Below, piece after piece: positions 52,838-58,075 of a DNA stretch of 64,000 nucleotides. The position numbers were made by a program, and so were the translations under genes. Position 1 is the stretch's first letter, and every line of letters starts with the position of its first letter. The notes below the pieces were generated by a model. That model did not search any database. It saw only the letters and a program-made list of their open reading frames with translations, and was not told where the DNA came from. This DNA is from a virus (Duplodnaviria > Heunggongvirae > Uroviricota > Caudoviricetes), in the IMG/VR virus record IMGVR_UViG_2939127364_000001; one strand, 5' to 3'.

Positions 52838-55800
52838 TTAGTTACGTTGAGTGTTTGGGTTGAGTGATCCGCCAGGGCGTTTCTCTTGAGCGATAGTCTC
52901 AAGCGCGATTGCTTTCATCCGTTGAGCGGCATTGTTCCATATGCTTTCTGTATCGCCGGATTCAGTTGTGCTACCGTCACTATGGACGTTGATCTCAATT
53001 GATACCGGAGAAAGAACATTTCCTCCTCCACTCATACCATCGGTACTGAGCGTTACAGGGATTGTTCGACCATCAGGCAATGGAACATACGCCTCATTCA
53101 TATCGCCTTCCCCAAACAACGCCAATTGAGGTGAGTTGGCGATACCGCCTTTCTGGTATGCCCGGAGCGGGATCACGCCGTCTTTTCCGAATATGCCACC
53201 ATTTGCAAACTTCGGAATTGCAGGAATACCATTCGTGCCATCGGCAGCAGAACTGGTCAGATTGTTGAACCCGGAAGTTGAGCCAGAAGAACCGGACATC
53301 AATCCATCGAATCCACCACCAGCCCATACTGAAACCAAACCAGATGCAACTGTTGCGCCGAAATTCAACCACTTATTACCAGAGCCGGAAGCATTAGCTC
53401 CAAGCATTGCAAACGCGGCAGACAGCGCGCCGGTAACAGAACTGAGGTTCTGCATCGAGAAGATGGAGTCCTTCACGGCTTTTGTCTCGGCATCTTTGGC
53501 TTCAGTGCTATCAAATAGCCCTGATACCCAGCTACCAATCGCATTTGTTGCAGTGCCAATTGCGCTGGTGGTCTGCTGTGTTGTTTGCCCCAATCCAGTT
53601 ACCGAACTGGACGTCTCCTTCGTGGCTTCTCCTACCGACTTGTCGCCATTAACAGTGTTGCTTATGCGCACACCTTGATTGGCAACGGCGGAAGCAACCC
53701 CGGTGAGCAAATTACCACTCTGTGAACTACCAGCTGCGGTGGTTCCCATCCCCAACATGTTCATTAGAGGCAGCGTGATCTGCGACTTCACGACCATATT
53801 GGTGATATCTTTCAAAATGGACTGAGACAGGCTGGAGAAGCTCATCTTCCCGTTAATAACGAAATCAGTCAGGACATCAGTTAAGCCACTAAACAAATCA
53901 GTCCAGGTGCTTTCGATCTGCTCTGCCAGGTTTTCGTATTCCAGTGCCAACTTCTGCGTCGCAGTCCCCGTCTCTTTAATAAGCGCGGTATTGCCAGCAG
54001 CAATAAGTTGATTGATCTTTTTATCGAACAACTCAATCTGGCTTTGTGAGGCTGTGCCTGACTCAATCGCAGCTTTACGTAAATCCATCAACGCTTTAAG
54101 GTTGCGATTATAGGTTTCTTCGAAATCAGCAACTTTCTCTTCACGAGACGGCGTATAGCCAGCACTAATAATGGAATCCGCCTCCGGTGCCCAAGTGGAG
54201 ATCATCTGCTCAACATTGCGGCGATTAAACATCTCGCGATATTCAGGTGTCGCATTTTTGAGGTCTTCAAGACGTTTTTTCGCCTTGTCGATCATCTCTT
54301 GAGTGATGAACTCGTTAGGAACCGCATTAGCCAAATCTGTCAGCGATTTCGTTGTATCGCGAAGAGACTGATCAAACGATACCGTAGCCTTAGAGCTTTC
54401 ACCCATTTGCCCCATAAGCTGATCGGCTTTGTCCAGAGCCTTCTGATATCCGGCCGCCAGTTTCTGTTGCGCTGCCTGTTCTTTCTTTGCTGCTCTCTCG
54501 GCTGCTTTTGCGGTACGGTTTGCTGCCTTATCTGCTGCTTCTGCATCAAGTTCACGAGCTTTTGTCAGAGTCTTAATTACTGCGATGCGGTCATTTTCTG
54601 ACAACTGCTCTAATTTCACATCACCGTAAATTTTCTTCTGTCTTAATTGCTCCTTGAGTTGTCGAGGCCCAACAACAGGTTGACCTTGTAAGTCGTATAA
54701 TGCGGTACCATCGAGATTGACTCTTTGATACCTTTTAGAGTCCATCTGCTGTTTCCAAAAACCAGTCATAGTTTTGGAATTAGCATCAACTGGTGTGCTT
54801 GAAAACTCACCAATTTTACCGCCATTAATAGAAACCAAGCCGTCCCCAGCTTTCACGCTAAGACTGATTTCAAGGTTCTCCATCCCCTCTTTTACAATCT
54901 TCAAAGCCTCGGTGGTGGCGTCTATCTTTGTCTGGGCTTCTTTTTGCCCCTGCATATCGTTCGACTCTTGGGTCTTTTTGAGCTCTTCAGAGTATGTGGC
55001 GAGTTCACCAAGCCCCTTCTCATAACGAGCTTTATACCCTTTGAGTTTTTGCTCGTCGGCCTGGGCGTACAAACGTCCAAGTTCTGCGTTGTTTTCTGCC
55101 CTTAATTTGCTTTTTTCGTGGTCGGACAAGTCCGACCGCGCGGCAATTTTCTCATTGCTTTTGGTGAGTCTTTCTATCTCTTTGGCGACTGAGGCTATTA
55201 ATGCATTCCCTTTCTGGTTGACCGCATCAATATCCTCTCTATATTTCTTAGTAATGCTTTGTTTGATGGTTTCGGCTATGCCGCCATCAAGAGCTTTGGC
55301 GACTTCCTCTCTTTCTTTTCGCGCTTTTTCCAGTTTCTTTTTGCTGTCGTCAACATCGACACCAACTTCGTACGGTCCCGTGTATGCTGAAAAATGCAAG
55401 GTTTTGCCAGTCTCGACTTCTTTTTCCAGTCTGGAGATCTCTCGATCTTTCTTGCTCAGTTCGCTTTCCAGCATCGCGCGATCTGCCTGCGTCATCGCTT
55501 CAGGGATTTCTCTGACTTTGTTTACAACGTCTTCGACTTTCTTCCTCAGACTGCTCATGTGCCAGATCAGCGTCGAAACCGCCGTTACCGCAGCAGTAAA
55601 GAAGAACCCTATAGGGTTTGCAGCCATGAACGCAGTCAAGCCAGCAAATGCATTGCGAATAGCAAAAATCAATGCAGGGATGGTAGATAGTCCCATGCGT
55701 GAGGCTCGATTGAAGCGTTTAACGGCTGTCGTCGCAAGATCAAATGTCCCCTGTATTGTGGTGGATACCGTAGCAAAGGTGCTGATCATGCTATTAGCAG

Positions 55801-57421
55801 TGCCAATGACACCAGAAATCCCCGATTTGAGGAGTCTGAAGGCCATCGTGACAGCGACGGCTTTGCCGAAAGTGACAACAAGCTCCTGGTTTTTAATCAG
55901 CCATTTCGCCAGGTCACGCAAACCATCAATAGCCGTCGTCAATCCGCTTCCCAACGAGTGAGCAAAAGATGTACCCTCTGCGCTATTCATCAGGGAGGTG
56001 AGTTCTTTCATTCCCTCTCTTAAAGAAGACAAATAACCAGTCTGGCCTACTTTGTCCGCGAACAGCGTAAAGGCTGTCTTCATTTGCGCCAACGTACCGG
56101 TAAATGTGTTCATCATTTCGGACGCAGCTCCCTCGTTCTGCATCTTCAACTCTTTGAACATAAGTGCCAGTGCGTTTTTGGCTTCTACCGTTCCAGATGC
56201 TACAGCTTTAGTTAACTCGCCCATTGTCAGACCAGCAGCCTTGGCCATTGCGTTCATTGCTGTCGGAATCGCCTCACCTAATTGCTGGCGAAGCTCTTCC
56301 ATCGATACAACACCCTTACCAGACATCTGCTGAACAGCAATGGATGCACGCTTCAGAAGTTCGCTATCACCACCAAAACGAGCAACGGAGTCCACCAGCG
56401 CCTTCAGAGAACCATCGGTTGGATCTAAGCCAGCAGAACGAAACTTCACGAAGGAGTCTGTTAACGCCTGCATCGCGAACGGCGCATTTTGAGCCATGTC
56501 TACGATGTACTTCATATCATCAGCGGCAGCCTGGCCCGGGTTGGACTTCTCCTTATTCAACCCTCGAAGCATCACCCGCATACGTTCCATTTCGGCCGCA
56601 GCTTCAACAATAGGCTTCTGCCACCCAAACATGATGTCAGTAACCGTTCTGGCTGCATCTCCGATCTCGCCAAGCAGGAAAATGTTGCCACGAAGGCCAG
56701 AGAACATACCTCCTTCGTTACTTTTACCGCTATGGCCAGAAGCGCCGCTACGCCGCCCGCTACCACCATCGCCACTTCCAGATGTACGAACGCGTACCGG
56801 CTTGCTAATCAGTTGCTGACGTCCGATAACTTCGTCCATCTGCTCACGAACCTTTTTCAGTCCCTCGGCAGCCTGACTCGTTGTGACACCCCAATTACTG
56901 AGTCGCTTCGTCGTGGTATTAAGGCGCGTATTCATGCCACTCACGGACGCAGAGGCTTCTTTGACCTCCGTACCAAAGCGGCTTGCGCTTTTGCTTGCAT
57001 AGGTCGCCCAATCAGAGAAATCATTTAGCTCTGATTGCACTTTACGTAATGACGCGGTGAGTTTATCTACTGAAGAAGTTGTCGTATCGACGCGCTCAAT
57101 CAGGGCTTTAAGACCAGAATTGAGGCTGGTGATGTTGCCACGCATTTTACGCGTAGCATCTGAAGCAAGCTCAAAACCGGCAGCTACATCCTGTAGTTTA
57201 TCTGCCGTAGAATCGAGCTTGCTTTCCAGAACGCCAATGATACGGGCGACCGAACCCAAAGAGCGTTCAAAGGTTTGGATTTTTTGAGCAGGCTTTGTTA
57301 CCTGCTCACCAAATCGAGTAAGCAGTTTCCCCGCACGATCGATTGACGCTGTAAACTGTTTGTCTTCCAGCGACAGGATAAACTCTACGTTTTGTGACAT
57401 TCCCTTGTCATCCTCTGCCAA
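52838..57421 (-). CDS. Tail tape measure protein
   Basis: 1527 aa, helical coiled-coil rich, between tail chaperones and M-like gene. Confidence 0.85.
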   Translation of the reverse strand: MAEDDKGMSQNVEFILSLEDKQFTASIDRAGKLLTRFGEQVTKPAQKIQTFERSLGSVARIIGVLESKLDSTADKLQDVAAGFELASDATRKMRGNITSLNSGLKALIERVDTTTSSVDKLTASLRKVQSELNDFSDWATYASKSASRFGTEVKEASASVSGMNTRLNTTTKRLSNWGVTTSQAAEGLKKVREQMDEVIGRQQLISKPVRVRTSGSGDGGSGRRSGASGHSGKSNEGGMFSGLRGNIFLLGEIGDAARTVTDIMFGWQKPIVEAAAEMERMRVMLRGLNKEKSNPGQAAADDMKYIVDMAQNAPFAMQALTDSFVKFRSAGLDPTDGSLKALVDSVARFGGDSELLKRASIAVQQMSGKGVVSMEELRQQLGEAIPTAMNAMAKAAGLTMGELTKAVASGTVEAKNALALMFKELKMQNEGAASEMMNTFTGTLAQMKTAFTLFADKVGQTGYLSSLREGMKELTSLMNSAEGTSFAHSLGSGLTTAIDGLRDLAKWLIKNQELVVTFGKAVAVTMAFRLLKSGISGVIGTANSMISTFATVSTTIQGTFDLATTAVKRFNRASRMGLSTIPALIFAIRNAFAGLTAFMAANPIGFFFTAAVTAVSTLIWHMSSLRKKVEDVVNKVREIPEAMTQADRAMLESELSKKDREISRLEKEVETGKTLHFSAYTGPYEVGVDVDDSKKKLEKARKEREEVAKALDGGIAETIKQSITKKYREDIDAVNQKGNALIASVAKEIERLTKSNEKIAARSDLSDHEKSKLRAENNAELGRLYAQADEQKLKGYKARYEKGLGELATYSEELKKTQESNDMQGQKEAQTKIDATTEALKIVKEGMENLEISLSVKAGDGLVSINGGKIGEFSSTPVDANSKTMTGFWKQQMDSKRYQRVNLDGTALYDLQGQPVVGPRQLKEQLRQKKIYGDVKLEQLSENDRIAVIKTLTKARELDAEAADKAANRTAKAAERAAKKEQAAQQKLAAGYQKALDKADQLMGQMGESSKATVSFDQSLRDTTKSLTDLANAVPNEFITQEMIDKAKKRLEDLKNATPEYREMFNRRNVEQMISTWAPEADSIISAGYTPSREEKVADFEETYNRNLKALMDLRKAAIESGTASQSQIELFDKKINQLIAAGNTALIKETGTATQKLALEYENLAEQIESTWTDLFSGLTDVLTDFVINGKMSFSSLSQSILKDITNMVVKSQITLPLMNMLGMGTTAAGSSQSGNLLTGVASAVANQGVRISNTVNGDKSVGEATKETSSSVTGLGQTTQQTTSAIGTATNAIGSWVSGLFDSTEAKDAETKAVKDSIFSMQNLSSVTGALSAAFAMLGANASGSGNKWLNFGATVASGLVSVWAGGGFDGLMSGSSGSTSGFNNLTSSAADGTNGIPAIPKFANGGIFGKDGVIPLRAYQKGGIANSPQLALFGEGDMNEAYVPLPDGRTIPVTLSTDGMSGGGNVLSPVSIEINVHSDGSTTESGDTESIWNNAAQRMKAIALETIAQEKRPGGSLNPNTQRN

Positions 57422-57794
57422 ATATTTGCATCAGTTGCTCTTTGGCGTCAGGGTCTGCCTTATCCTGGCTTGGATCGTAGACTTTATCTGTTACGACTGG
57501 TCTTCCAATCCTGAGTTGCAAACCCTCCATGAACGCCTTCACAGCCTCGCCATCCGCCTGGGACGCACGAGCGACTTGTAAGTTGCGGACATCCTCTTCC
57601 GCACGCAGACGGTCTATATTGCGACTGAGCATCCAGAACATCGTGAGAGGAACGTTCAGTAGCTCTAATGGCGACACGGCGTAGTGAGCAACTACACGAC
57701 TGAAATAGAATCCGAGATCTATTGAGACGGTCCTTGTCCCGGATTCATCGCGGGAAATTACTTTGCCCCTTCGCCAGCCGCTTTTTCGTTTTCT
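57408..57794 (-). CDS. Tail assembly chaperone, T-like -1 frame segment (predicted to be expressed as G-T fusion)
   Basis: Frame is open from 57794 and is -1 relative to the G-like gene; overlaps G 3' end by 37 nt; no good independent start. Confidence 0.5.
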   Translation of the reverse strand, partial: RKRKSGWRRGKVISRDESGTRTVSIDLGFYFSRVVAHYAVSPLELLNVPLTMFWMLSRNIDRLRAEEDVRNLQVARASQADGEAVKAFMEGLQLRIGRPVVTDKVYDPSQDKADPDAKEQLMQIFGRG

Positions 57795-58075
57795 TCATCA
57801 ATCACTTCCATAGCGAAGGTGAAGATCTGCTGGAGTTGCGGAACAGTCAGTTTTTCAAGAACTTCGTCAGGTACTGAAGGGATAACCTTACGAACCAGAT
57901 CTGCATAAGCTGTCACTTGCTCAACAGGAGACATGTTCATGAGATCTTTGCCTTCCATCTGCTTGATGGAAACAAAGAGGCCGACGGTCATTTCAACGAT
58001 GGGATATTCTTTGCCACCAAATTTGATGCTTTTTTTCGGCGGCAGAATGGAGTCGAGATCGAGTAATTTGGTCAT
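57758..58075 (-). CDS. Tail assembly chaperone (lambda G-like)
   Basis: 105 aa acidic protein between major tail and tape measure genes. Confidence 0.65.
   Translation of the reverse strand: MTKLLDLDSILPPKKSIKFGGKEYPIVEMTVGLFVSIKQMEGKDLMNMSPVEQVTAYADLVRKVIPSVPDEVLEKLTVPQLQQIFTFAMEVIDEENEKAAGEGAK

Follow-up and report, generated by a model that had tools for sequence, protein, structure and literature searches.

The window, by which we mean the whole 64,000-nt stretch of DNA analysed here, is an SSU5-type phage-plasmid. All genes of its tail block lie on the minus strand (coordinates checked in the window, which all positions below refer to unless stated otherwise) and follow one another in the order major tail protein, G, T frame and tape measure protein. 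The major tail protein (58137–58919; 260 aa) is the upstream neighbour of G, contains a C-terminal Big_2 Ig-like domain (Pfam, E 5e-23) and matches phrog_1280 together with major tail protein phrogs. G, a putative lambda-G-like tail assembly chaperone gene (57758–58075), runs from an ATG at 58075 to a TAA stop at 57760–57758 and encodes 105 aa. The T-like extension after it (57408–57761) contains 117 codons, from GTA (57761–57759) to GGA (57413–57411), and ends at a TGA (57410–57408). The downstream neighbour is the tape measure gene (52838–57400), recognised by Pfam TMP_3 and Tape_meas_lam_C and by phrog_1292. The phrog_1292 alignment begins at residue 8 of the TTG-started tape-measure open reading frame (ORF), and the gene likely starts at ATG 57400, which has AAGGGA just upstream.

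Relative to G, T lies in the −1 frame. This frame is shut by two successive TGA codons (57800–57795) and is then open from AGA (57794–57792) to the TGA at 57410–57408, a run of 128 codons that overlaps G by 34 nt plus the stop, or about 12 codons. These coordinates reproduce those of the initial annotation, which had proposed that a programmed −1 frameshift joins the two frames. For a stop frequency of about 3/64 per codon, we estimate that 128 successive codons free of stops arise with a chance of about 0.2% per frame; a six-frame open-stretch statistic of the window was discarded as a null because real genes dominate it. The T frame is kept as coding sequence in 95 related loci (described below) and is therefore not a chance open frame.

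Two smaller features lie within the pair. An A7 run inside G (58030–58036, minus strand) reads CCG AAA AAA AGC over codons 13–16, and the −1 frame behind it, read from the sequence, closes at about 17 codons, so that a shift there would only truncate G. Ribosomes and polymerases alike are prone to slip on the run, which is also likely to cause homopolymer errors in sequencing. In the first part of T, a 9-codon ORF in the G frame (57719–57748, minus strand; ATG AAT CCG GGA CAA GGA CCG TCT CAA TAG) begins 9 nt past the G stop. An ACG or AAG replaces its ATG in Photorhabdus, in Morganella and in the relatives of the Raoultella type, and the ORF is probably meaningless.

The region is 90–100% identical in Salmonella phage SSU5, Escherichia phage Cyrano and several Klebsiella phage-plasmids. 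Among 5426 complete E. coli genomes the tail module is present in 231, on plasmids of about 105–128 kb and never on the chromosome, and Klebsiella, Salmonella, Kluyvera and Yersinia pestis have it too. The T protein is 94% identical to that of a 108-kb Yersinia pestis contig, which we take to be pMT1-like. Two further contigs, from metagenome-assembled genomes (MAGs) labelled Bacillota bacterium (L085) and Candidatus Fimivivens sp. (L088), contain T regions 94% and 82% identical to the module; filed under Firmicutes MAGs, these contigs are probably mis-binned.

In every public record that we examined, G and T are two separate hypothetical proteins, and the annotated start of T varies among GTG 57677 (PhiR41_1), ATG 57641 (SSU5) and ATG 57632 (RefSeq/PGAP). 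In PHROGs the pair is matched by phrog_893 and phrog_1131, both of 'unknown function', and phrog_1131 models just the 89-aa portion of T downstream of the GTG. Pfam and NCBIfam scans of G, T and the GT fusion gave no match, including none to a curated gpG/gpT family of tail assembly chaperones (TAC). When 5.8 billion database proteins were searched with the fused 222-aa sequence, no annotated G–T fusion was found; the search returned only ORFs of chimeric or indel origin, such as P0001 and P0006 (see below). In the library searched, no paper connects SSU5, pHCM2 or pMT1 with frameshifting, and the frameshift is without annotation in GenBank, RefSeq and PHROGs.

We compared the locus with 95 related loci around G and T. 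The set comprises IMG/VR contigs at 75–100% G identity (80 close relatives), one genome per species (among them Y. pestis, Kluyvera, Photorhabdus at 69% T identity and Morganella at 54%), and Raoultella-type contigs at 66% G identity; a second scan of viral contigs, using the T alignment, added almost no diversity. The linker that separates the GTG at 57677 from the G stop measures 80 nt and corresponds to 28 T-frame codons. Eleven of its 15 variable columns fall at T-frame third positions (binomial P = 0.002), and in four divergent comparisons its pN/pS is 0.21–0.33 in the T frame versus 0.67–2.15 in the other two frames. The clade at 75% identity has an in-frame 3-nt indel within the linker.

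The linker peptide SIDLGFYFSR is kept as far out as Pseudomonas phage hairong and Chelativorans. In single comparisons, the −1 frames that follow the G homologues of hairong and of a Chelativorans composti prophage are homologous to the linker (E 6e-14 and 8e-18) from residue 14 of the extension onward, a point that precedes every start codon. Both of these distant relatives contain a canonical slippery heptamer in the correct register just before the G stop, G_GGA_AAA in hairong and G_GGA_AAC in Chelativorans. The canonical heptamers, together with the linker homology, indicate that the family behaves as a G/GT frameshift family.

The first canonical start codon in the T frame is the GTG at 57677–57675, which had formerly been taken as the T start and from which a separately initiated T had been expected if no frameshift occurs. 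This codon is replaced by GTA, GTC or GTT (synonymous Val), or by ATT in more distant relatives, in 29 of the 95 loci. Upstream of about codon 36 of the extension, no start codon is common to all 95 loci. We found no Shine–Dalgarno (SD)-like sequence in the 20 nt upstream of the GTG, nor before ATG 57641 or ATG 57632, unlike G and the tape-measure gene, each of which has one. The variation of the GTG among relatives marks it as an internal codon rather than a start, and it is most likely an internal Val codon in the predicted fusion.

A competing explanation involves no frameshift and makes T a separate small protein started at GTG 57677, ATG 57641 or ATG 57632. All public records in GenBank, RefSeq and PHROGs treat T in this way, the phrog_1131 model starts at the GTG, and every locus has an ATG close to the FWM motif. 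Against this, the 28–40 codons upstream of these starts evolve as T-frame coding sequence with homologues in distant phages, the GTG is not conserved and annotators disagree on the start, no candidate start has the SD-like sequence that G and the tape-measure gene possess, and the distant homologues contain canonical slippery heptamers. A 222-aa fusion, or peptides from VISRDESGTRTVSIDLGFYFSR, would be incompatible with a separately started T. We regard a separate T as unlikely. Thus the earlier view that T has no good start of its own holds: the GTG is missing from 29 of 95 loci, an SD-like element is lacking, and the sequence upstream evolves as coding sequence. The gene order and the comparative evidence also agree with the conserved G/GT arrangement of long-tailed phages that had been recognised here.

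The only slippery element common to all 95 loci is A_AAG (57761–57764), formed by the last A of a GCA codon and the final Lys codon of G, AAG. The TAA stop of G (57758–57760) is directly 3′ of this codon and is a possible pause element, in the manner of a 'shifty stop'. The string NNA_AAG_TA(A/G)_T (57757–57766) is invariant in 95/95 loci, including relatives at 54–69% T identity. The codon before AAG is GCA in 91 loci and GTA in four, an Ala-to-Val change that retains the A of A_AAG, and the base ahead of that codon is G, A or C. The stop is TAA in 91 loci and TAG in four, and is always followed by T.

How far the −1 frame extends into G differs among the relatives. In 29 of the 80 close relatives and in all more distant enterobacterial relatives, the −1 frame opens just 10 nt before the stop. 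Within this 10-nt overlap, AAG is the only codon able to re-pair one base back, as AAA. A zero-frame Z_ZZN element is present (GCA_AAG, where AAG re-pairs to AAA); a canonical in-register X_XXY_YYZ heptamer is absent from the window and from all 95 loci of the SSU5 clade, which have N_G(C/T)A_AAG instead. In E. coli, A_AAG is the most shift-prone tetranucleotide and reaches 5.6% with a pseudoknot, whereas tetranucleotides without a stimulator are barely above background, at about 0.15% (PMC4066793). Its high propensity arises because the single tRNA-Lys pairs better with AAA (PMC5009743, PMC4066793). IS1222 uses a site of the NNA_AAG type, and Bacillus cdd contains one (PMC5009743).

On this comparative evidence we consider it very likely that a −1 frameshift makes a G–T fusion. 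The full statement, that G and T form a G/GT pair with a −1 shift at the A_AAG abutting the G stop, a predicted 222-aa fusion product and, jointly with these, a lambda-gpG-like tail assembly chaperone of the SSU5-type phage-plasmid as the product of G, is in our judgement probable. The predicted GT product, join(58075..57761, 57761..57408) on the minus strand, has the junction ...AAGEGAK-VISRDESG... in translation and a mass of approximately 24.5 kDa. The mechanism is a known one that is unannotated in this common element, and its proposed site is non-canonical, of a type known from insertion sequence (IS) elements.

In the proposed mechanism, most ribosomes would terminate at the TAA (57760–57758) and release G, and a minority would slip back one nucleotide at the final G codon. 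The tRNA-Lys would leave AAG (57763–57761) and re-pair with AAA (57764–57762), so that the G at 57761 is read twice, and decoding would resume at GTA (57761–57759) in the −1 frame and continue to the TGA at 57410–57408. The slip could take place while AAG occupies the A site, as at a hexanucleotide-type GCA_AAG element, or once it is in the P site and the ribosome faces the stop codon. If the fusion acts as in lambda, its T part would connect the tape measure, coated with chaperone, to the major tail protein.

The initial annotation had placed the shift elsewhere, at GAAAAAG (57781–57787), and while the comparative evidence strongly supports a programmed −1 frameshift joining G and T, it does not support that site. 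A shift at GAAAAAG would occur eight codons before the G stop and give the junction ...EENEK-SGWRRGKVISR.... It could reach T in the window and in the 51 of 80 close relatives in which the −1 frame is likewise open from 57794. The A_AAA within GAA_AAA is slightly shift-prone (PMC4066793), and an AAA eight codons upstream of a stop has the spacing at which a stop-paused ribosome stimulates the trailing one, ribosome collisions having been found to promote −1 shifts at this distance (PMC6815119).

The register and the conservation of GAAAAAG both speak against it. G reads GAA AAC GAA AAA GCG through this region, so that the site is read as GAA_AAA_G and not as G_AAA_AAG, and there is no X_XXY_YYZ heptamer in register. 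It offers just an A_AAA tetranucleotide, the weakest of the six active tetranucleotides (PMC4066793). The motif is absent from Photorhabdus (GAA AAT GAA GCC), Morganella and the Raoultella-type relatives, all of which keep the T frame. Furthermore, the window has GGC GAA at 57770–57775, and the synonymous GGT GAA makes a TGA in the −1 frame that separates GAAAAAG from T and leaves only the 10-nt overlap (AGR GGC/AGC AAA before GTA). Of the 80 IMG/VR relatives, 29 have GGT GAA, and so do the loci of Y. pestis, Kluyvera, Morganella, the Raoultella type and the 75% clade. A path that is closed so often by a synonymous GGC-to-GGT change, with no protection by selection, is not a functional path, and we find it quite improbable that GAAAAAG is the shift site. 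Since the −1 frame is open from 57794 in the lineage of the window, GAA_AAA may make a minor contribution there, and it is not the conserved mechanism. Hence, the slippery site should most likely be moved from 57781–57787 to the A_AAG at 57761–57764.

Another way to reach T without a frameshift is termination–reinitiation, or a non-canonical start near the G stop such as the ATT at 57758–57756, which would give a free 116-aa T. Conserved T-frame coding begins right at the stop, as a coupled restart would also give, and E. coli is known to use AUU, though rarely, as a start codon. The putative restart codon, however, is ATT, ATA or GTT among the relatives, so that no start-like codon is conserved, and there is no suitably placed SD-like element. 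The distant homologues bear canonical −1 heptamers and not restart signals, and in lambda the functional product is the fusion, not free T (PMC5009743). This route appears very unlikely.

The weakest explanation, transcriptional slippage, in which an mRNA subpopulation lacking one A would fuse G and T, can draw on P0001, a database protein from an ENA contig of 111.5 kb, which has G joined to the T frame exactly at the A5 run, where a 1-nt loss yields the fusion, but polymerase slippage usually needs roughly 7–9 residues and the A runs here are short (5 A at 57782–57786 and 3 A at 57762–57764), the A5 run shows no conservation and in relatives the TGA blocks it, and P0001 frameshifts again a few codons later, all of which leaves this reading with scarcely any probability. 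We also considered P0001 and P0006, the latter from an NCBI contig of 26 kb, as natural fusions and rejected them, as both of these database proteins switch among the G, T and third frames in the region of the linker and the A5 run. In P0001, ...EENEK-SGWRRGKVISRDESGTRTVSIDL- is followed by a further change of frame, and this second change a few codons on makes it look like an assembly error. Both proteins look like the result of 1-nt indel errors in assembly and are not evidence of fusion.

We examined the sequence on both sides of the proposed shift codon for possible stimulators. An RNAalifold consensus contains a candidate hairpin (57708–57746) with an 8-bp helix between GAAUCCGG (57746–57739) and UCGGAUUC (57715–57708). 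The helix begins 14 nt 3′ of AAG, compared with a usual spacer of 5–9 nt. Of the 95 loci, 94 keep the helix whole; wobble changes occur in it, and Photorhabdus has one double change from U-A to G-C. Of its cells, 95.7% are paired, versus 23–56% for slid controls. Single-sequence folds have z-scores of −1.0 to −4.3, the last in the Photorhabdus version, and the fold of the window itself is modest (z −0.39 over 111 nt and −1.5 over 58 nt). The arms encode conserved (E)SG and (L/F)GF residues, so the conservation of the helix could be a by-product of coding. Stimulation of the shift by this downstream hairpin is weakly supported, a lead and not a finding. A possible outer helix (57752–57747 with 57700–57695), which would shorten the spacer to 8 nt, is lost in the Raoultella-type loci through synonymous changes and in Morganella, and a TCCCG/CGGGA stem right after the stop was dropped because it is not kept in Photorhabdus or Morganella.

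Upstream of the shift codon, AAGGGG lies 2 nt before AAG and was rejected as an SD-like stimulator, being GAAGAG or GAAGAA in relatives; GGNGA was likewise set aside, as it lies 6–7 nt and not 10–14 nt upstream of AAG. Reading the sequences of the relatives, we found no conserved SD-like element at the dnaX-type spacing of 10–14 nt. The stop codon beside AAG could pause the ribosome and give it time to slip if AAG is in the P site. UAAU is a strong terminator context, however, and a long pause at this stop is therefore not expected.

The arrangement closely resembles the G/GT pair of lambda and the frameshift conserved among dsDNA phages with long tails (Levin 1993; Xu, Hendrix and Duda 2004, as cited in PMC5009743). 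Lambda makes G and GT at a ratio of about 30:1 (PMC5009743). As in lambda, two overlapping ORFs lie between the major tail and tape-measure genes, and the downstream ORF is in the −1 frame without a start of its own. The first ORF has a predicted TAC-like fold: in a structure comparison, the predicted model of G matches annotated tail assembly chaperones as well as 3FGX. The G_GGA_AAA and G_GGA_AAC heptamers of the distant homologues are close to the G_GGA_AAG of lambda. In pairs of the lambda type, tail assembly depends on both G and GT, and neither is found in the virion. Unlike the lambda proteins, the G and T of the window show no sequence match that would place them in Pfam gpG or gpT. 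A further difference is that the SSU5 clade has (G/A/C)_G(C/T)A_AAG, one base from G_GGA_AAG, with no canonical heptamer, and that its proposed shift takes place at the final sense codon of G, right next to the stop.

The site itself resembles those of IS elements, where IS3 uses A_AAG with a pseudoknot and IS1222 has G_CGA_AAG; Bacillus cdd has A_CGA_AAG (PMC5009743). As at these A_AAG and NNA_AAG sites, the proposed slip rests on one tRNA-Lys moving from AAG to AAA, and the codon in the P site ends in A and does not re-pair. The host is an enterobacterium, in which both AAA and AAG are read by one tRNA-Lys (PMC5009743). The IS sites have strong stimulators that have been demonstrated (pseudoknots), whereas the SSU5 site has a weak candidate hairpin at long spacing and an adjacent stop, and it sits in a phage tail module and not in a transposase. 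A slippery last sense codon directly before a stop, with a possible pause, is also a feature of the prfB 'shifty stop', where the shift occurs at CUU_UGA (Weiss et al. 1987, as cited in PMC5009743). The prfB shift is +1, in contrast to the −1 shift proposed for SSU5, and the SSU5 clade has no conserved SD-like element at the prfB spacing.

A related string occurs in the major tail protein gene of the Raoultella-type relatives (L094, at 1184–1200 of that contig, and L095–L097 and L177). Here the major tail protein is a 163-aa ORF that ends in GCC CCA AAG TAA, a canonical C_CCA_AAG heptamer with TAA directly after it, and the Big_2 Ig-like domain lies in the −1 frame, where gene callers let the Ig ORF begin with a GTG 3 nt further on. 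The window, by contrast, has the Ig domain fused in frame (CTG CCA AAG CCG, within 58137–58919, minus strand). The sequence of these relatives suggests a second programmed −1 frameshift, by which a fraction of the subunits of the tail tube would gain the Ig domain. The A_AAG-stop cassette appears to be reused in these relatives, as C_CCA_AAG_TAA, to append an Ig-like domain to the major tail protein.

We tentatively suggest, as one possible history that we hold with some doubt, that the SSU5 clade replaced an ancestral G_GGA_AAR heptamer with the A_AAG codon abutting the stop, a paused or terminating ribosome substituting for the slippery P-site codon. If true, the A_AAG-stop cassette would be a natural −1 'shifty stop', perhaps dispensing with an RNA stimulator.

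Recognition of G and T as a G/GT pair would give both ORFs a function and mend the gene model of T, and it would add a tail chaperone family that is unlabelled in Pfam and PHROGs. For recoding research, the A_AAG-plus-stop would be a natural and strongly conserved site that can be compared directly with the canonical heptamers of homologous genes. SSU5-like phage-plasmids are common, and a phage carrying the site grows on laboratory E. coli and Salmonella.
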